A stretch of DNA of 64,000 nt, from the sequence record NC_024124.2. One strand, written 5' to 3'. The position numbers and the translations under genes are program-made. The notes under the pieces were generated by a model, which made no database searches, was not told where the DNA came from, and saw only the letters and a program-made list of their open reading frames with translations. Below are positions 2,780 to 64,000 of the stretch, piece by piece (positions within the stretch are counted from its first letter, which is position 1; every line of letters begins with the position of its first letter). The stretch comes from Escherichia phage vB_EcoM_JS09.

Positions 2780-3084
2780 TGACCACTATTGAAGTTTTTG
2801 AGTATTGTTATAACAGCCCAGTATGCAATAAAAGGGCTCTTGTAGAAAATTACGAGATCTACCATTTTAAACCTAAACGATATTGTTTGACTAAAGGTCC
2901 GTTCGCAGGTCAGCAGGTTCTTTGTACTGCTCCTAATGCACGGTTGATGACTAGTATTCCGCATTTCAAAATGGAATTTATTGATGGGCCGTTTAAGGGA
3001 TTAATCACTCAAAGTTTAATGGCGTTTAATTCCGTCCCATTTTTGATTAAAGAAAAAACTTGGATAAATTTATTTTCTAATTGA
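2776..3084 (+). CDS. Hypothetical protein
   Basis: ORF in frame with ATGATGA overlap to upstream stop; Cys-containing 102 aa. Confidence 0.35.
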   Translation: MMTTIEVFEYCYNSPVCNKRALVENYEIYHFKPKRYCLTKGPFAGQQVLCTAPNARLMTSIPHFKMEFIDGPFKGLITQSLMAFNSVPFLIKEKTWINLFSN

Positions 3085-3090
3085 GGTTAT

Positions 3091-3453
3091 ATGAAAGCAT
3101 ATCAAATTCTTGAAGGTGCGCATAAAGGCACTATTTATTTTGAAGACGGTACTCAGGCCCGGATTATTGTCTCTAAGACTTTTAAAGAAGACGCTATTGT
3201 AGACCCGGAAATTTTCTACGGTTTGAATGCCCGTGAAATTGAAATTGAACATCAACCTAAAGTTAAAATTGAAGGTGGTCAACACCTGAACGTTAACGTT
3301 CTGCGTCGTGAAACTCTGGAAGATGCAGTTAAGCATCCGGAAAAATATCCTCAGCTGACCATCCGTGTATCCGGTTATGCAGTTCGCTTTAACTCTCTGA
3401 CTCCAGAACAGCAGCGCGACGTTATCGCTCGTACCTTTACTGAGAGTCTATAA
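3091..3453 (+). CDS. Autonomous glycyl-radical cofactor (GrcA/YfiD-like)
   Basis: C-terminal [25 protein letters not shown] is the glycyl-radical signature of PFL/GrcA; T4 is known to encode a YfiD-like protein. Confidence 0.75.
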
Positions 3454-3677
3454 TGGCTAAATTGATTATAGAAGGGTCTGAAGATGTTTTAAAATGTTTT
3501 GCCGCCTGGTTTAGTTGCTCAGGCGAGCAATCATTCACTGAAGCATTTAGAATGGGTGATATTACCGGAAACTATCCGACAACTGATATCACTGTACGTG
3601 GATATGGTATTAATGAGCCTATCCAATTGGTCGAATATGACCTTGCCACCGATGAGGAAATTCCTTATGTCGATTGA
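3453..3677 (+). CDS. Hypothetical protein
   Basis: 74-aa ORF, TAATG-type coupling to upstream gene. Confidence 0.4.
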   Translation: MAKLIIEGSEDVLKCFAAWFSCSGEQSFTEAFRMGDITGNYPTTDITVRGYGINEPIQLVEYDLATDEEIPYVD

Positions 3678-3933
3678 AGATATTAAAGGTTACAAACCGC
3701 ACACCGATGACAAAATCGGCAAAGTGAACGCTATTAAAGATGCCGAAGTCCGTCTTGGATTGATGTTTGATGCTCTGATTGAAGAAGCATATATCTTGAA
3801 AGAAAATGAAACAGAGCAACAAACCAAAGAAGATATGGATGCAGTGCAGGCTCTTAAGTACGCTAAGCAACATCTAAAAGAAGCCAGCATGTGGGCGTGT
3901 CGTGCAGTATTTCGACCTGAGGAAAAATACTAA
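3667..3933 (+). CDS. Hypothetical protein
   Basis: In-frame ATG at 3667 inside ORF 3499-3933, overlapping upstream stop; 88 aa. Confidence 0.4.
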   Translation: MSIEDIKGYKPHTDDKIGKVNAIKDAEVRLGLMFDALIEEAYILKENETEQQTKEDMDAVQALKYAKQHLKEASMWACRAVFRPEEKY

Positions 3934-4148
3934 TGGCTTCTACTATTACTGGGTTATTGGACTTTCAAGAAAAGGTCAACAAAATTTGTAGTGAATACTT
4001 AAAGTATCTTGAAGAAGACCTTGAAGATTGTAAGGAAGAAGGCGAAGAAGACTATGCTGACCAGCGCCGACGCCAAATCGAAGAGATGAGGCATTTCGCC
4101 GATATGGTATCTAAAGAATCTTGGGCTTTAACTCCATTTTATCAATAA
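3933..4148 (+). CDS. Hypothetical acidic protein
   Basis: 71-aa ORF, ATG overlaps upstream stop. Confidence 0.4.
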   Translation: MASTITGLLDFQEKVNKICSEYLKYLEEDLEDCKEEGEEDYADQRRRQIEEMRHFADMVSKESWALTPFYQ

Positions 4149-4152
4149 AGTA

Positions 4153-4202
4153 GTTTACTTCTCCTCTAGTTGTGTTACTATAGACCTTGTCAACTAGAGG
4201 AG
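4153..4202 (+). promoter_or_regulatory. Early promoter with flanking inverted repeat (PeSL-like cassette) upstream of regB
   Basis: GTTTAC -35, TACTAT -10; arms CTCCTCTAGTTG / CAACTAGAGGAG, the second containing the SD. Confidence 0.55.
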
Positions 4203-4209
4203 AAACCAA

Positions 4210-4668
4210 ATGACTATCAATTCGGAAGTTTTTATCCGCCGTAATAAACTCCGTCGAATCTTTGAAACGGAGTTCCGCAAAATAAATGCCGGTATAAAAG
4301 ATGCTGCAAAGTCTCTTGGACTACCAGGCTTTCATATCAAGTATTCTCAACATCTCTTAGATCGTGCCATCCAGAGAGAAATAGATGAGAATTACGTTTT
4401 TGAATTATTTCATAAAGTAAAAAATCATGTTAAAGAAGTTGCAGAATTTTTATCAATGCCGGCACGTCCAGATGTTGATGAAGATTTTGTCGAAGGTGTC
4501 GAATATCGCCCAGGCCGTTTAGAAATAACTGATGGAAATCTTTGGTTAGGACTTACAGTTTGTCGCGAAAATCCAGCATTCAAAATGAAGACTCTTCAAT
4601 GTAGAATGGCTATTATTAACAGTAAACGACTACCAGGAAAAGCTTCTAAAGCAGTGATTAAAATCTAG
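4210..4668 (+). CDS. regB: Sequence-specific endoribonuclease RegB
   Basis: MTINSEVFIRRNKLRR...KYSQHLLDRAIQREID...RPGRLEITDGNLWLG matches recalled T4 RegB; SD gaggag. Confidence 0.85.
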   Translation: MTINSEVFIRRNKLRRIFETEFRKINAGIKDAAKSLGLPGFHIKYSQHLLDRAIQREIDENYVFELFHKVKNHVKEVAEFLSMPARPDVDEDFVEGVEYRPGRLEITDGNLWLGLTVCRENPAFKMKTLQCRMAIINSKRLPGKASKAVIKI

Positions 4669-4676
4669 AGGTAAAC

Positions 4677-5219
4677 ATGAGAAAAGCACTACTCGCTGGT
4701 CTATTTGCTCTTTCGTTATCAGCACATAGCTCCGAGCATACTTTTAGTAATGTCCAACTCGATAACTTGAATTATGCTTATCAGTTTGGGGAACAGTTTT
4801 CTAAGGACGGAAAATTTAAAACGCATGAAAATATGCATAAGAAAGGACTTGGATACATAATGGCCGCAATACTATGGCAGGAATCATCTGCTGGTATTAA
4901 TCTTAAAGATAAGAAAGGTCACCATGCGTATGGAATGTTCCAAAACTATCTACCAACAATGAGGGCAAGAATTAACCAGCTTGGTTATAATATGACTGAT
5001 GCCCAAATTAAGAAAATGCTATCTAAGCGGTCTAATTCAACCAGATGGGCTTATATCGAATTTTCTTATTGGTTAAATATACATAATGGGGATATAAGAA
5101 AAGCTATATCCTCATACAATGCGGGATGGAAGACAAGTGCTGGAAGTAAATATGCTTCTGAAGTCCTAGAAAAGGCTAATTACCTTAAATCAAATAAACT
5201 ACTGGAAATAAAAGAATGA
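4677..5219 (+). CDS. Secreted lytic-transglycosylase-like protein (SLT-type motifs)
   Basis: Signal peptide MRKALLAGLFALSLSAHS; motifs WQESSAG, GMFQ, SYNAGW resemble SLT domain. Confidence 0.55.
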   Translation: MRKALLAGLFALSLSAHSSEHTFSNVQLDNLNYAYQFGEQFSKDGKFKTHENMHKKGLGYIMAAILWQESSAGINLKDKKGHHAYGMFQNYLPTMRARINQLGYNMTDAQIKKMLSKRSNSTRWAYIEFSYWLNIHNGDIRKAISSYNAGWKTSAGSKYASEVLEKANYLKSNKLLEIKE

Positions 5220-5563
5220 CCAAAGTGTTGGCTTTAATAGTTGGCTTGGTTTCATTTAACGCTCTTGCTAATACTACATATACTGATGTAACGGAGTATA
5301 CAAACAGAACGGCGTCTGATTATTGTGGTAAAAGTCAAGAGTGTAAAGTAGATTTTTCACAAAAATTGTTATATGCGTATAAAGACGGAGAAAAAGATGG
5401 GGCGTCTAGTAGGTTCAAGGCGTCTACCTTAATTAAAAGATACTATAAAAAATGGCAAATATTAGAATGCTCGGTGGCGGAACCTAAAGATAAGGCAGCA
5501 TGCAATTCTATGGTGGACCGTCTAGTTGACTCTTATAATAGAGGACTTGCAGCAAGTGATTAA
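5216..5563 (+). CDS. Secreted/periplasmic hypothetical protein
   Basis: N-terminal signal-like MTKVLALIVGLVSFNALA; ATGA overlap with upstream gene. Confidence 0.45.
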   Translation: MTKVLALIVGLVSFNALANTTYTDVTEYTNRTASDYCGKSQECKVDFSQKLLYAYKDGEKDGASSRFKASTLIKRYYKKWQILECSVAEPKDKAACNSMVDRLVDSYNRGLAASD

Positions 5564-6023
5564 AAACTATATCAAGGGCGATATTGTCGCCCTGTTTTCT
5601 AAAGGTAATAATATTGCTCATGGGTGTAATTGTTTTCATACAATGGGCGCCGGTGTAGCAGGCCAATTAGCAAAGGCTTATCCAAAAATTTTAGAAGCCG
5701 ATAAACTTCAAACCGAATTCGGAGACAAGTCTAAACTCGGGACTTATTCGGTTTATGAAAAATATTTTAAGACCCATAAAGCTTATTGCTTTAATCTTTA
5801 TACGCAGTTTGAGCCGGGACCTAATTTTGAGTACTATGCTTTAATGAATTGTATAATAGAATTAAATGAATTCGGAAAGAATAAGATAACAAAGCCTGTA
5901 ATTTATATGCCAAGAATTGGTGCAGGTATCGGTGGCGGAAACTGGGATGTCATCGAAGAGATTTTAGACACATATTCCACTAAACTAGAAATTGTGATTG
6001 TTGATTGGGAACCATTATTATGA
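5556..6023 (+). CDS. Macrodomain protein (TARG1/DarG-like ADP-ribose hydrolase fold); start uncertain
   Basis: HGCNCFHTMGAGVAGQL and MPRIGAGIGGGNWDVI resemble TARG1-type macrodomain motifs; ORF opens at TTG 5526, GTG 5556 chosen after SD gagga. Confidence 0.55.
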   Translation: MIKNYIKGDIVALFSKGNNIAHGCNCFHTMGAGVAGQLAKAYPKILEADKLQTEFGDKSKLGTYSVYEKYFKTHKAYCFNLYTQFEPGPNFEYYALMNCIIELNEFGKNKITKPVIYMPRIGAGIGGGNWDVIEEILDTYSTKLEIVIVDWEPLL

Positions 6024-13337: not shown

Positions 13338-14333
13338 ATGAGCATTACATCTGATGCGGTAAAACATGAAATTAACGGTTTATGTGCTTCACAGATTAAA
13401 GTGTGGTTTAAAGACCATAATGATCGCAGAGCACTTAATTATGAGCAAATTGCTATCCAAGTTCATCAATTATTGACTAGTAAATTTGATTTTCATATGC
13501 CGTCTGAAATCTATACTAATCTACCGCGAGCGCTTATTAAAGCGTGTAAAGGTTACGGAAAATCAATGGCCGATGGAATCTTCAGCGCGCTGAATAAACT
13601 TAACGTTCTGTCGATGATTAACTCTAATAACATCCTGCGTAATCTAGGACGTACTGATTTGTTCGGTCGTGAACAGTGTAAAATGCCTTTGAAATGGATT
13701 GTTGCTCATCTTAACGAGAACCAAACACGTTTTATGGCCGTATCAGCACGCTTACAAATGGGCCTAGATCGTCAGATGAACTTTAAAACTCATCCACGTT
13801 ATTCAGGTTCAACAGACTTTTATAAATGTGAGCTTCAAAAGGTTGCAGGTAAAACTGTCTTAGTAGTTCGTGTAACGTTTGAAGGACGACGTCAAGGATA
13901 TTTTGACCTAATCGGCTCTGGTCTTAAACATTGTGGATTTATTGACGAAGTTGTTATAAAGCGAGACGGCATTGGATATCGTATTGGATATGTTTGTACT
14001 CTTAAAGAAGAGATTTCAGGTCCAGCACCAGGACTAAAAGACGTTAGATATAAAGACGAGCTCGTTGAAGAAATAAAAGAAGTTGAATATGATATCAACC
14101 AAGAAGATGCTCTTAAAGACCTTATTGATGAACTAAACCAAGACGTTATTCCGGTTCAAAAATTTGAATCAAAACATGCTGAGCAAATCAAATACTTTGA
14201 AGCTTTGATTAACGAACTTAATGTAACTATTCAACAGACTGATGATGAAATCTCACGATTAGCAGGCTTAAACGGTAAAAATAAAACAGAACGAGCTAAT
14301 CTTATTCAAGTAGTAAAACTTCTTAAGGAATGA
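13338..14333 (+). CDS. Hypothetical protein with C-terminal coiled-coil
   Basis: 331 aa; SD gagga; cassette GCTTTAC..TATAAT upstream. Confidence 0.5.
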   Translation: MSITSDAVKHEINGLCASQIKVWFKDHNDRRALNYEQIAIQVHQLLTSKFDFHMPSEIYTNLPRALIKACKGYGKSMADGIFSALNKLNVLSMINSNNILRNLGRTDLFGREQCKMPLKWIVAHLNENQTRFMAVSARLQMGLDRQMNFKTHPRYSGSTDFYKCELQKVAGKTVLVVRVTFEGRRQGYFDLIGSGLKHCGFIDEVVIKRDGIGYRIGYVCTLKEEISGPAPGLKDVRYKDELVEEIKEVEYDINQEDALKDLIDELNQDVIPVQKFESKHAEQIKYFEALINELNVTIQQTDDEISRLAGLNGKNKTERANLIQVVKLLKE

Positions 14334-14362
14334 TGTACAACCAAGGATGGTTGGAGTATAAT
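14334..14362 (+). promoter_or_regulatory. Repeated promoter cassette, CCAAGGATGGTTGGAGTATAAT family
   Basis: TGTACAACCAAGGATGGTTGGAGTATAAT; near-identical copies at 15329, 57193, 57752. Confidence 0.55.
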
Positions 14363-14388
14363 AAATTTTTCAACATGAGGAATATAAA

Positions 14389-15324
14389 ATGGCTTCTATT
14401 ACACGTAGAGAACTTATCAAAGAATTTACCTCGAACGCATATACCCCAGGTCCTAATCCTATCCGTATGCCTGTAAAGACTCCTGAAGAGATTGAGGAAA
14501 TCTGTTCATATTATGGGATTACTTCTCGTAAGTTTACTCAATTTGAATGCGTTACTAACACACCCGTTAAAGAGTTCATTAAAAATGGTGAGTTCAGCCG
14601 TTTATTAGCCAAACAGAAACTTCGTAATTTTTGTATTGGCGGTGAAGGACAATATTTCGCTAAGCAGTTCAGGAATAACCTTAACAATCTGATGGCCATT
14701 GCTTCTCGTATTCGTCCTCAAGCAATTAACATGAAACATTTGAAATATACTTACGATAAGTTAGAAATCATGGTTATCAGTGAGAACGAGTTCACTCTTA
14801 CGTATAAACCTAAGAATGATAACGTTGCTCGTGTATTCCACCAAGCGTTGGAAGTGTTAGGTGATAATATCCACCAGATTAAAGCAATTTATTCTCGTGA
14901 GCTTAATATTATCAACCCTATCAAGAATAAGGGCCATATCGCTATCCAGGCTCGTGTATCTATTGGTAAAAAGGTTCCTGCGCCATGGTGGCACAAAGAC
15001 TCTGAATACTATCAAAATCTTAAAAAGGAAAATGCCACGTTCGAAGCGTCAATTACTACAACCCCAATTGGCAATGCTGAAGTTCAAGGTGCATATTTTA
15101 CTGCTCCATCTATATACACTTCACCGTCGACTAAACTGGAAATCTCTAACGGTCTTCTTCCTGCCGAAGATTACCATTACAATCAAATCAAGGCCACTAT
15201 GGACAAACTGTCTGTTGAACTTGACAAAGCACAAGCTAAGCTTCGTGATGCTCAAAGTGTTGTAACGAATCTCCAGTTGCAGTATTCTAAACTTTTTAAC
15301 GCAATGAATGCATTAAAATCATAA
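14389..15324 (+). CDS. Hypothetical protein with C-terminal coiled-coil
   Basis: 311 aa; preceded by CCAAGGATGGTTGGAGTATAAT cassette. Confidence 0.5.
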   Translation: MASITRRELIKEFTSNAYTPGPNPIRMPVKTPEEIEEICSYYGITSRKFTQFECVTNTPVKEFIKNGEFSRLLAKQKLRNFCIGGEGQYFAKQFRNNLNNLMAIASRIRPQAINMKHLKYTYDKLEIMVISENEFTLTYKPKNDNVARVFHQALEVLGDNIHQIKAIYSRELNIINPIKNKGHIAIQARVSIGKKVPAPWWHKDSEYYQNLKKENATFEASITTTPIGNAEVQGAYFTAPSIYTSPSTKLEISNGLLPAEDYHYNQIKATMDKLSVELDKAQAKLRDAQSVVTNLQLQYSKLFNAMNALKS

Positions 15325-15328
15325 AATA

Positions 15329-15358
15329 GTTTACAACCAAGGATGGTTGGAGTATAAT
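15329..15358 (+). promoter_or_regulatory. Repeated promoter cassette, CCAAGGATGGTTGGAGTATAAT family
   Basis: GTTTACAACCAAGGATGGTTGGAGTATAAT. Confidence 0.55.
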
Positions 15359-15386
15359 GAATCTATCTTAACGAGAGGAAAATATT

Positions 15387-16337
15387 ATGACACGTTCACA
15401 TTACATTGATTATTTTGCAGGTCTTATCGCTAACGTTCATGCTCAGCGCGCTACTGGTGCACTAGGATTTGATGTTCCACACCGAGATGTAGTAAGTGGT
15501 ATTCTTCGAGATTTTGGCACATACACAGGTCAAGAAAATCATATCTGTAAAGATACTCAGAATGCGTATTCTCATTCATTAGGGACACTGCTTCATTGGT
15601 TCAAACGTTCTCGTTTATTATCTTCTACTGTGGCTCGTGATAACATTAAAAACTTTATGAAGCCGAGCTTTATTAAATCTGTGACATCTAAAACTGATTT
15701 GGTTGAATTTACTATTATTAACGATGTTAAAAAGACTCATTTGGCTGATTGGTTATCTACCATTCCTGAAACTAAATTTGCTGATAAATTTGCTTGTGAA
15801 TTCAATAACCAAGTGAATATGCTTTTTAAACATTCACGTAAATTATTCACAGGCGGTGATGGTCGTACAAATAAAGTTCATGTTAAAGATTGGGTTACTG
15901 CAGTATTCAAACCAACTGGTAATGGTAACGCATCATTGTCAATTGATATCCAGGTTCCTTATTACTACTCACGTAATCTCGGTACCATGAAAGCCGAAGA
16001 AATTAATAAGCGCAACAAAACCGTTCGTTCGCTGTCTTATAAACTTCGTATGATGTTACAGACTATGGATGTTGTTGAAATGTTCAGCGAAACTGAAGAT
16101 AATGGTTCAATGTTATTCAGTTCTCGTATTCAAATTAAGCTGAAGAACCCTAATACGTATAAACCTAAGCCTATTAAAGAGCCTAAAGCAGAAAAAGTTG
16201 ATAACTTAAGAGAAGAACGCGAATATCTCAAATCTCGTCTGAAAGAAGTCGAAGCCCAGATTGCAGAACAAACTAAATCGTTAAAAGCTCTGAATGCGAA
16301 AGCGGATGGCTTACGAAATGCCATTGAGGTGTTATAA
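15387..16337 (+). CDS. Hypothetical protein with C-terminal coiled-coil
   Basis: 316 aa; preceded by GTTTAC..CCAAGGATGGTTGGAGTATAAT cassette. Confidence 0.5.
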   Translation: MTRSHYIDYFAGLIANVHAQRATGALGFDVPHRDVVSGILRDFGTYTGQENHICKDTQNAYSHSLGTLLHWFKRSRLLSSTVARDNIKNFMKPSFIKSVTSKTDLVEFTIINDVKKTHLADWLSTIPETKFADKFACEFNNQVNMLFKHSRKLFTGGDGRTNKVHVKDWVTAVFKPTGNGNASLSIDIQVPYYYSRNLGTMKAEEINKRNKTVRSLSYKLRMMLQTMDVVEMFSETEDNGSMLFSSRIQIKLKNPNTYKPKPIKEPKAEKVDNLREEREYLKSRLKEVEAQIAEQTKSLKALNAKADGLRNAIEVL

Positions 16338-60644: not shown

Positions 60645-62462
60645 ATGATTAAAAATGAAATTAAGGTATTGTCAGATGTAGAACATATTAAGAAACGTAG
60701 TGGCATGTATATTGGTTCTTCGGCCAAAGAAGCCCACGAGCGTTTTTTGTTTGGTAAATATCAACAAGTTGAATATGTTCCTGGTCTGGTTAAATTAATC
60801 GATGAGATTATTGACAACTCGGTTGATGAAGCTATTCGTACATCATTTAAGTTTGCAAATAAAATCGATGTGCAAATTAAAAATAATCAAGTTTCGGTGG
60901 AAGATAACGGACGTGGTATTCCTCAAGGTTTAGTTACCGACCAAACAGGTGAACAAATTCCTGGGCCTGTAGCGGCCTGGACTATTCCAAAGGCTGGTGG
61001 TAACTTTGGTGATGACTCTGAACGCAAGACTGGCGGTATGAACGGCGTCGGGAGTAGTTTAACTAATATCTTCTCTACGTTGTTTACAGGCATAACGTCA
61101 GATGGCGAAAATGAAATCACTGTTAACTGTTCAAACGGAATGGAAAACAAATCGTGGTCTTCTAAGAAATCTAAAGGTAAAGGCACTAAAGTAATCTTCA
61201 CTCCTGATTTCTCTTCATTTGAAGAGCATAATTTATCTCAAATTTATTTAGATATTACTTTAGACCGACTTCAAACATTGGCAGTCGTTTATCCTGATAT
61301 CAAGTTCACATTTAATGGTAAAAAGGTTGATGGTAATTTTAAACGATTTGCTAAACAATTTGGCGAAGATAGCATCATTCAAGAAAATGATAAAGTCTCT
61401 ATAGCATTCACAACATCACCGGACGGCTTCCGTCATTTAACTTATGTGAATAACATCCATACTAAAAATGGTGGTCATCATGTTGAATGTGTAATGGATG
61501 ATATCTGCGAACATCTTTTGCCGGGTATTAAAAAGAAATATAAGGGTATTGAAGTCACTAAAGCTCGTGTTAAAGAATGTCTCACAATGTTGATGTTTAT
61601 TAGAGACATGAGCAACATGCGTTTTGATTCTCAGACTAAAGAACGTTTAACGTCAACGTATGGCGATATTCGTAATCATATCCAATTAGATGCTAAGAAA
61701 ATTGCTCAGGCACTTCTTAAAAACGAAGCCTTGATTATGCCTATTGTTGAAGCAGCATTAGCTCGTAAATTGGCAGCAGAAAAGGCTGCAGAAACTAAAG
61801 CAGCTAAAAAGGCAACTAAAGCTAAGGTTCATAAGCATATTAAAGCTAACCAATGTGGTAAAGATGCAGATACGACATTGTTTTTAACAGAAGGTGATTC
61901 GGCAATTGGTTATCTCATTGATGTTCGTGACCGTGAACTACACGGTGGATTCCCATTACGTGGTAAGGTGATGAATAGCTGGGGTATGTCATATGCCGAT
62001 ATGATGAAGAACAAAGAGCTCTTCGATATCTGTGCTATCACAGGTCTTATTCTTGGTGAAAAGGCAGAGAATACGAACTATCGTAATATTGCAATTATGA
62101 CCGATGCCGATCATGACGGTCTTGGAAGTATCTATCCGGCTTTGCTTGCTTTCTTTAGTAATTGGCCTGAATTGTTTGAACAAGGACGTATTCGCTTTGT
62201 TAAAACGCCTGTAATTATTGCACAAATTGGCAAAACTCAAAAATGGTTTTATACTGTAGCTGAGTATGAAGAAGTTAAAGATACACTGCCTAAGCATAGT
62301 ATTCGATACATCAAGGGATTAGGCTCCCTTGAAAAGTCAGAATATCGTGAAATGATTCAGAACCCTGTGTACGACGTAGTTAAACTTCCTGAAAATTGGA
62401 AAGAACTCTTTGAAATGTTGATGGGTGATGATTCAGAACTTCGTAAAGAATGGATGTCCTAA
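60645..62462 (+). CDS. 39: Type II DNA topoisomerase large (ATPase) subunit, unsplit 39/60 form
   Basis: GHKL ATPase motifs EVIDNSVDE, GRGIP, GGMNGVG; 605 aa without interruption. Confidence 0.9.
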   Translation: MIKNEIKVLSDVEHIKKRSGMYIGSSAKEAHERFLFGKYQQVEYVPGLVKLIDEIIDNSVDEAIRTSFKFANKIDVQIKNNQVSVEDNGRGIPQGLVTDQTGEQIPGPVAAWTIPKAGGNFGDDSERKTGGMNGVGSSLTNIFSTLFTGITSDGENEITVNCSNGMENKSWSSKKSKGKGTKVIFTPDFSSFEEHNLSQIYLDITLDRLQTLAVVYPDIKFTFNGKKVDGNFKRFAKQFGEDSIIQENDKVSIAFTTSPDGFRHLTYVNNIHTKNGGHHVECVMDDICEHLLPGIKKKYKGIEVTKARVKECLTMLMFIRDMSNMRFDSQTKERLTSTYGDIRNHIQLDAKKIAQALLKNEALIMPIVEAALARKLAAEKAAETKAAKKATKAKVHKHIKANQCGKDADTTLFLTEGDSAIGYLIDVRDRELHGGFPLRGKVMNSWGMSYADMMKNKELFDICAITGLILGEKAENTNYRNIAIMTDADHDGLGSIYPALLAFFSNWPELFEQGRIRFVKTPVIIAQIGKTQKWFYTVAEYEEVKDTLPKHSIRYIKGLGSLEKSEYREMIQNPVYDVVKLPENWKELFEMLMGDDSELRKEWMS

Positions 62463-62485
62463 GCTCCTTCGGGAGCTTCATTTTA
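62462..62485 (+). terminator. Terminator-like CUUCGG hairpin after gene 39
   Basis: AGCTCC-TTCG-GGAGCT then T-rich tract. Confidence 0.5.
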
Positions 62486-62504
62486 ATTTTAATAAGGCTT
62501 AATT

Positions 62505-63605
62505 ATGAAAGTTATGTTTATCCCATCTCGTGCAGTCCCATTTAATCCTGACCGTGTACAAGGTGGTCTTGAAGCAGTACATTTAAATGTGTTGAAATAT
62601 CTTGTGTCCATCGGTGCTGATATTGATTATATCGGTTTTGATAATGACACATTTGGTGATTGGAAGGTTAATCATCATCCTGTTGGTCATCTGACTAAAT
62701 TCAGTCTAGGTATGAGTTATACTATGGCTCGTAAGATTGTTGAACTAGCCGGCATCCATGAATACGATTTTGTTGTTACTATGGAACCGACTAAACTAAC
62801 CGTTCAGGCAATTAAAGACGCAGGTCTCTCTAAAGTTCATAAGAATTTTATGGCAACACCATTTGAACCGGTATCTCGTGGCATTGTTCAAATTTGGGAC
62901 CAGACTATTCAAATTCATAAGAATGGTGGTAAGAGTTATGCTCCTACTAAAGCCTTCCGTGAATTTGAACGCAAATATTGTTATATGACTTCAGGTTTGA
63001 CTGACAAAATTGATTACGATTATTGGCGAGCAAATCCGTTGTTTGAAGCCGAAGATTATCCGGTTATTTGTTTGAATGAGAAACCTGAAGTTCTTCCGGC
63101 GACGGATCTGATTATTAGTGCACAACGTTATGACACTAAAATGCGTCGTACTGATGTTGCTCTTGAAGCGATTAAAGCACTAGGCGAAAATGGTGCAGGA
63201 TACTGTCCAAGCAAATGGGCGCCACCAGCTAAATATCCTGTTATTATTGATGCTCCACACAGTGAAATCATGGAACGTCTTAAAACAGCTAAAGCACTTA
63301 TTAATACGTGTCCTGACACAGGTACGGTAGAGAATAGTTCTATTGAAGCCATCTCTAAAGGTGTCCCTGTAATCCAGTTAGTTTTTAAGGATTATCCTCA
63401 TGCGACATTTGAATACGACCCAGATACTGTGCGTGTAGAAATTGATTCCTCTACTCCTAAGAAAGAAGTAGTTGCGCTTTACACAAAAGCTGTATTAGAA
63501 TTCACTGACACATACGAAGCTCGAGTTAAACGTGCTGAAGCAGTATGGAAGAAGTATAATCGAGATGCAGTTGTTGCGATGTGGGATAAAATCTTCACAG
63601 CGTAA
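62505..63605 (+). CDS. GT-B-fold glycosyltransferase-like protein (candidate DNA sugar transferase)
   Basis: N-terminal MKVMFIPS...GGLEAV and C-terminal TVENSSIEAISKGVPVIQL resemble GT-B donor-binding motifs; lies where T4 carries gene 60/mobA. Confidence 0.55.
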   Translation: MKVMFIPSRAVPFNPDRVQGGLEAVHLNVLKYLVSIGADIDYIGFDNDTFGDWKVNHHPVGHLTKFSLGMSYTMARKIVELAGIHEYDFVVTMEPTKLTVQAIKDAGLSKVHKNFMATPFEPVSRGIVQIWDQTIQIHKNGGKSYAPTKAFREFERKYCYMTSGLTDKIDYDYWRANPLFEAEDYPVICLNEKPEVLPATDLIISAQRYDTKMRRTDVALEAIKALGENGAGYCPSKWAPPAKYPVIIDAPHSEIMERLKTAKALINTCPDTGTVENSSIEAISKGVPVIQLVFKDYPHATFEYDPDTVRVEIDSSTPKKEVVALYTKAVLEFTDTYEARVKRAEAVWKKYNRDAVVAMWDKIFTA

Positions 63606-63697
63606 ATCCTGAATAGCCTGAGGCACTATTACACATAAGATGATAGATTATATAGTCTTTAGTAATAGTGCCCTAGGAATCTACTGAAGAGAATATT

Positions 63698-63898
63698 ATG
63701 AGAACATATAACGTGGACTTGGAACTTTTTGATAAAGCTGTACTCCGGGAATTCCGGCTTATCCAAAGATTTTTTGATATCGAATCAGCAGAGTCCTTTA
63801 AAGAACGCTTTAAAGAAATTCGATATAAAATACAAACCGATACAGCTACTAAAGAAGAACTTCTTGAAGTAGCAGAAATTTTTAAACGTAACTTGTGA
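63698..63898 (+). CDS. Small hypothetical protein (rIIA.1 position)
   Basis: 66 aa, SD gaga; AT-rich third codon positions. Confidence 0.45.
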   Translation: MRTYNVDLELFDKAVLREFRLIQRFFDIESAESFKERFKEIRYKIQTDTATKEELLEVAEIFKRNL

Positions 63899-64000
63899 TG
63901 AGAGAAAAATCCAGTCAAGTCCTTTACGAGTACCAACAAAGTTTGAACGACGAGTATTACCGAATGCTCCTGCATCGCCATGTTCACCAAAACCGCCAGC

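Follow-up and report, generated by a model that had tools for sequence, protein, structure and literature searches.

A blunt non-collinear junction at the expected rIIA start of a Mosigvirus sequence

The 3' end of the window (the whole stretch of 64,000 nt that was analysed) appears to offer two coding strands at once. Comparison with related phages indicates that this ambiguity is a breakpoint, and not two competing readings of a single gene. The plus strand, read this way, codes as far as 63898, where rIIA.1 ends, and the minus strand codes from 63911, where an internal fragment of gene 12 (short tail fibre) begins; since each strand codes on one side of the join, an impression of strand ambiguity arises. 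The original observation is correct and its explanation ordinary: rIIA.1, the rIIA ribosome-binding spacer and the gp12 receptor-binding domain are all familiar components, and nothing at 63788-64000 points to a new gene or mechanism. The join itself is probably an artefact of assembly, cutting or layout of the sequence.

The features of the region are:

60645-62462, plus strand: gp39, topoisomerase II large subunit, 605 aa (from the ORF list)
62505-63605, plus strand: 366-aa ORF, homologue of RB69 ORF003c, used as synteny anchor (from the ORF list; full-length match to phrog_8302, E=6e-223)
63698-63898, plus strand: rIIA.1, a genuine CDS of 66 codons and a TGA (Pfam PF24210 T4_RIIA1, E=2.1e-30; phrog_1683, E=3.5e-34)
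63898-64000, plus strand: spurious frame, MREKSSQVLYEYQQ... (peptide MREKSSQVLYEYQQSLNDEYYRMLLHRHVHQNRQ), whose ATG at 63898 overlaps the rIIA.1 TGA; open to the window edge
63899-63910, plus strand: intact 12-nt spacer between rIIA.1 and rIIA, GAGAGAAAAAT, the last stretch collinear with relatives
63910/63911, no strand: non-collinear blunt junction
63788-63910, minus strand: non-coding continuation of the gp12 frame, IFLSSQVTFKNF...GLC, 41 codons, antisense to the spacer and rIIA.1
63911-64000, minus strand: internal gene 12 fragment, codons 449-478 of 527, from the receptor-binding domain, running in from beyond the window edge

Gene order up to the spacer

The window belongs to an RB69-like T-even phage of the genus Mosigvirus. 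When positions 62400-64000 were used as a megablast query, 166 phage records were matched, 152 with a query coverage of 80% or more, and the best Mosigvirus matches reached 99.0% identity. The alignment of every relative ends at query base 1511, which is window position 63910. On a larger scale, positions 66594 down to 2215 of MK327934 are collinear with window 1-63910, small indels aside, and position 2215 of that record is the base preceding the start codon of its first CDS, the 737-aa rIIA. Up to 63910, the gene order at the 3' end of the window is gp39, the ORF003c homologue, rIIA.1 and the spacer, all on the plus strand. Elsewhere in the window, three tandem plus-strand ORFs of like size (331, 311 and 316 aa) occupy 13338-16337, with C-termini that look coiled-coil-like by eye; the middle one, at 14389-15324, is without counterpart in MK327934, where two such ORFs occur.

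The 366-aa ORF at 62505-63605 has no Pfam match, and its PHROG family, phrog_8302, is one of unknown function. RB69 ORF003c is likewise 366 residues long and has been proposed to be an arabinosyl-hmC DNA transferase with a GT-B fold (PMC6024577). The agreement in length and position with RB69 ORF003c marks the window phage, through this putative transferase homologue, as a likely ara-hmC modifier. An identical 366-aa protein is encoded on at least 24 public contigs, with rIIA.1 and then rIIA downstream each time.

The comparator set consisted of 12 loci (L001 and L006-L016), 11 of which are contigs encoding a protein identical to the 366-aa protein or gp39 of the window. After the 12-nt spacer, all 12 carry the ATG of a 737-aa rIIA (phrog_612, E=1e-225), followed by rIIB. 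The 16-mer GTGATGAGAGAAAAAT is identical in every one of these loci, with ATGATTATTG directly after it; all 12 continue ATGATTATTGAAACGG from the end of the 16-mer, and the N-terminus of rIIA is nearly invariant at the DNA level. Ten independent contigs with the identical 366-aa protein share the order gp39, 366-aa ORF, rIIA.1, rIIA and rIIB at no more than 97.4% DNA identity to the window, and in these a distance of 306 nt separates the 366-aa gene from the rIIA start, which is thereby equivalent to window 63911. The identical gp39 was found on one contig only (Logan SRR27755818_20512), which has the canonical order and 98.95% DNA identity. One comparator (L007, ENA ERZ10407628 NODE_4) has at 5161-5958 an extra 265-aa ORF between gp39 and the ORF003c homologue; a faint NUMOD3 match suggests a homing endonuclease. 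This ORF is missing from the window and from the other comparators.

The rIIA.1 reading frame aligns with its family over essentially the full profile (residues 1-65 against positions 1-65 of 67 in PF24210), has a GC content by codon position of 0.49/0.27/0.25, and is also annotated as a CDS in MK327934. Within the spacer, GAGAG at 63900-63904 is Shine-Dalgarno-like and lies at a 6-nt spacing from the expected rIIA ATG; it would serve as the rIIA ribosome-binding site. In the intergenic region between the ORF003c homologue and rIIA.1, an inverted repeat at 63617-63677 has 16-nt arms (CCTGAGGCACTATTAC / GTAATAGTGCCCTAGG, 88% complementary) and a 29-nt loop. The sole sigma-70-like promoter match (63628-63656) lies within the repeat, which has no T-run terminator after it. 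A scan of 63500-64000 returned zero terminators and one promoter-like site, a yield not above that of shuffled sequences.

Two open frames and the missing rIIA

The first-pass annotation had described a plus-strand ATG at 63898, with GC-rich third positions, directly after the 66-codon ORF at 63698-63898. Both are present. The plus frame from that ATG has a GC content by codon position of 0.59/0.21/0.56, as compared to third-position values of 0.25-0.29 in three real genes nearby. In relatives, the equivalent ATG opens an ORF of 7 codons (MREKYDY, then a stop), and the rIIA ATG comes 13 nt further on. The expectation that rIIA should start here on the plus strand is borne out by synteny in all 12 comparator loci, with two corrections: the syntenic ATG would be at 63911 and not at 63898, and in the window rIIA is not there. 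Positions 63911-63913 read CCA, against ATG in each of the 12 comparators. The 34-aa plus peptide gave no BLASTP alignment with the 737-aa Mosigvirus rIIA at E<=100 and no Pfam or PHROG match. No tblastn match to rIIA was obtained anywhere in the window, and rIIB was likewise not found in it.

The minus frame, AGGFGEHGDAGAFGNTRRSNFVGTRKGLDWIFL... (AGGFGEHGDAGAFGNTRRSNFVGTRKGLDWIFLSS...GLC, then a stop), is open from 64000 down to 63788, with the stop at 63785-63787. It is present as first quoted, AT-rich third positions included, and the coding-like part is limited to its first 30 codons (63911-64000), where GC by position is 0.67/0.60/0.20, the typical coding pattern for this genome. The codons at 63788-63910 give 0.17/0.28/0.45, which is the reverse of that pattern.

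The 90 bases at 63911-64000 match gp12 in many Mosigvirus records at 98.9% identity (89/90 bases, E=4e-37); in DCP548 the 90-mer lies at 3001-3090 of the retrieved locus (L003), within the gp12 CDS at 2851-4434 on the minus strand. The peptide that they encode in the minus frame agrees with gp12 residues 449-478 at 29 of 30 positions (E=3e-20). The same fragment falls in frame within the receptor-binding domain family PF14928 (S_tail_recep_bd; E=7.3e-15, 55.5 bits against a cutoff of 23.8), covering profile positions 16-47 of 93. The complete domain (profile 1-93; gp12 residues 434-526) is absent, since the frame departs from gp12 after W478 and the last 49 residues are missing. After GLDW, real gp12 reads DNRSYFTNDGYEIDP (DNRSYFTNDG..., 49 more residues), whereas the window reads IFLSSQVTF.... 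The 90-mer is present once only in the window, and the rest of gp12 is not found elsewhere in the 64,000 nt. Among phage records, 337 match the 90-mer and none is 100% identical, the best being 98.9%; the exact 90-mer was not found in IMG/VR, JGI metagenome or GTDB genome contigs.

The sole difference from the best matches is C for T at window position 63978 (plus strand), in gp12 codon 456 on the minus strand, which replaces a conserved Asp with Gly (D456G) and turns the EHDDAG or EHDDLG of the references into EHGDAG. Either a genuine variant or an error close to a contig end could explain the difference. Gene 12 labels vary among Mosigvirus records, from 'long tail fiber proximal subunit', 'fibritin', 'tail collar fiber protein' and 'straight tail fiber' to 'hypothetical protein' (for example in MK327934 at 93229-94812, MT782071 and PQ516281), and rIIA is often annotated 'hypothetical protein' in public records.

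The strand question, which the sequence in view had been said to leave unsettled, is answered within it by the Pfam match of rIIA.1 to the left of 63910/63911 and the gp12 match to the right. Extending the frames past the window edge, with the closest gp12 as a proxy, closes the plus frame after 67 codons and would make the minus frame 519 aa long, consisting of gp12 residues 1-478 and 41 nonsense residues.

Two readings would nevertheless retain one of the frames as a whole gene. One, in which 63898 or 63911 is the plus-strand start of rIIA or of a divergent rIIA allele and the minus frame is accidental, draws on synteny only, rIIA following rIIA.1 in every relative. Against this stand the CCA at the start position, a plus peptide without rIIA similarity or family match, its third-position GC of 0.56, the near-identity of those same 90 bases to gp12 on the other strand, and the near-invariant rIIA N-terminus of the 12 comparators; the reading is refuted. 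The minus frame could instead be a real and complete gene, encoding a variant short tail fibre of ~519 aa in which the last 49 residues are swapped for a 41-residue tail (IFLSSQ...GLC). The frame is indeed open from the window edge to 63788, and the 519-aa ORF does form with the proxy extension. The tail, however, has the non-coding base composition given above and overlaps the Pfam-verified rIIA.1 on the opposite strand. It would also cut the PF14928 domain at profile position 47 of 93 and replace a C-terminal domain that is near-invariant between T4 and the lineage of the window, and no such gene occurs among 466 related phage records. A variant fibre of this kind is therefore highly improbable. 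On these codon and homology comparisons, the minus frame to the left of 63911 is chance read-through, and the plus ATG at 63898 is spurious, its frame being neither rIIA nor a gene.

Structure and origin of the join

Base-by-base alignment against both parental sequences places the break between T63910 and C63911:

rIIA-side reference: left of the break, ...GTGATGAGAGAAAAAT; right of the break, ATGATTATTG...
gp12-antisense reference: left of the break, ...CGGTTATC; right of the break, CCAGTCAAG...
Window: left of the break, ...GAGAGAAAAAT; right of the break, CCAGTCAAG...

Microhomology at the junction is 0 nt, with no base shared on either side. The left breakpoint coincides, to the base, with the position at which the rIIA start codon begins in relatives. 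The right breakpoint falls on a gp12 codon boundary (W478/D479), mid-domain in the receptor-binding region. Both sides of the junction find their best matches in the same lineage (mar005P1, DCP548), so that the join is intragenomic. They map to minus-strand positions 81510 and 5001 of DCP548, and their relative orientation is that of the normal genome. There, the gp12 piece lies ~76 kb further along from the rIIA start in the same relative orientation, so that the join amounts to ~76.5 kb deleted or an arc of ~92-94 kb closed.

The join was not recovered outside the window. Of 466 phage records partially matched by a junction-spanning 190-mer, none extends across its two halves, and every match to the left half stops at query base 100 (window 63910). 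A junction 34-mer was not found in IMG/VR viral, JGI metagenome or GTDB genome contigs, and neither PLSDB plasmids nor complete E. coli genomes yielded a match to a junction-spanning 400-mer. PQ561416.1 contains the 90-mer at 64657-64746, yet the match is limited to the gp12 part. The canonical Mosigvirus collinearity from rIIA.1 into rIIA is thus lost in the window, every alignment ending at 63910.

An artefact would account for both breakpoints. One possible course is that a linear partial contig of ~92-94 kb, starting CCAGTCAAGTCC... arbitrarily inside gp12, was cut at the rIIA gene boundary and then read as circular; alternative layouts would be two concatenated pieces, or a chimeric read or scaffold. 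The join would be reproduced only by circularisation or duplication of the arc that runs between gp12 codon 478 and the rIIA spacer, or by a mis-ordering of three blocks. A blunt join is the outcome expected of concatenation, wrap-around, scaffolding or chimeric ligation. Neither homologous recombination nor a de Bruijn or overlap mis-join is compatible with the lack of shared sequence; with 0 nt in common at the join and the 90-mer occurring once in the window, an origin through a shared repeat, whether by graph-type misassembly or by homologous recombination, was rejected. rIIA is the landmark gene by which depositors set the origin of T4-like records, and MK327934 and many other such records begin exactly on the rIIA boundary. 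The exact placement of the left breakpoint on that boundary favours a cut guided by annotation over a random break, for which the chance of landing on any start-codon boundary would be ~270/168,000, about 0.16%. The gp12 breakpoint, in the middle of a conserved domain, has the look of an arbitrary assembler start on a circularly permuted genome, and both sides have the same relative orientation, as they must if one linear contig was circularised.

Three further origins were considered and set aside. A plain re-origin of a complete circular genome at rIIA with wrap-around was rejected by reasoning, as the rIIA ATG would be restored after the spacer. Inversion of one of the two arcs was rejected likewise: the result would be gp12 in sense from codon 479, whereas the window has it in antisense from codon 478. 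An engineered rIIA replacement was rejected as unlikely, the insert being antisense and beginning mid-domain, not at a gene or cassette boundary.

The remaining explanation is a genuine rearrangement, either as a short ectopic gp12 fragment at the rIIA start of a viable rII-null phage or as a ~76-kb deletion, with gp12 codon 478 fused to the rIIA start, in a defective genome that accompanies wild type in propagation or sequencing. A blunt join without microhomology fits end-joining-type illegitimate recombination, and the single lineage and shared relative orientation on both sides are what a simple deletion gives. Since 90 nt of the window lie beyond the join, a short ectopic stretch of gp12 with further genome behind it would also fit. 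In addition, rII functions are dispensable on common laboratory hosts, as established by T4 genetics; a real rearrangement destroying the rIIA start would therefore be tolerated, and this counts against the artefact. Opposing a rearrangement are the absence of the junction from all 466 related phage records and from every contig collection searched, and the placement of the breakpoint to the base on the rIIA start-codon boundary, which would be improbable for a random break in vivo. The deletion version loses essential structural and packaging genes. By T4 gene order, a deletion of ~76 kb removes rIIA, rIIB, the long tail fibres, head, tail and terminase genes, gp13/wac and the end of gp12, and is not viable, which disfavours a real deletion. 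The ectopic version is without positive support. A genuine rearrangement is thus unlikely, and we similarly regard it as doubtful that the join is physically real at all, whether as a natural rII-null rearrangement or as a mini-genome of ~92-94 kb without the late structural genes from the gp12 C-terminus through rIIA. If the join were real, it would represent a natural rII-null or defective T-even genome made by homology-free joining, a modest curiosity.

Under the preferred explanation, an artefactual join, the practical value of the result is one of quality control: rIIA is lost and gp12 cut short at a non-collinear join that either lies in the source sequence or was spanned when the window was built. 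For annotation and comparative work, 63910/63911 should be treated as a break, with neither a chimeric 519-aa gp12-like ORF nor an rIIA start called there.

Comparison with known systems

The rIIA locus of RB69-like phages (gp39, ORF003c, rIIA.1, rIIA, rIIB) is matched by the window in its upstream synteny and in the intact rIIA ribosome-binding spacer. It differs from the start codon onward, where gp12 antisense sequence takes the place of rIIA and no rIIA sequence is found. The gp12 portion resembles T4-type gp12 (PF14928; structures 5iv5, 1ocy and 1pdi, which span the segment and whose T4 sequence reads ...HAGGFGEHDDLGAFGNTRRSNFVGTRKGLDWDNRSYFTNDGYEIDP...) in that the minus strand at 63911-64000 encodes residues nearly identical to those of Mosigvirus gp12, with T4 gp12 also close. 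In contrast to T4-type gp12, the window shows 30 codons, its frame exits at codon 478, and it carries the D456G substitution, which is missing from the references.

The join as a whole is most similar to the contig-end, circularisation and concatenation artefacts, and to the chimeric joins, of circularly permuted phage assemblies. It shares with them a blunt, homology-free junction between two parts of one genome in consistent orientation, seen in no other record. One breakpoint lies on the gene boundary used as record origin and the other is arbitrary within a conserved gene, a combination that suggests an artefact of the same kind here.
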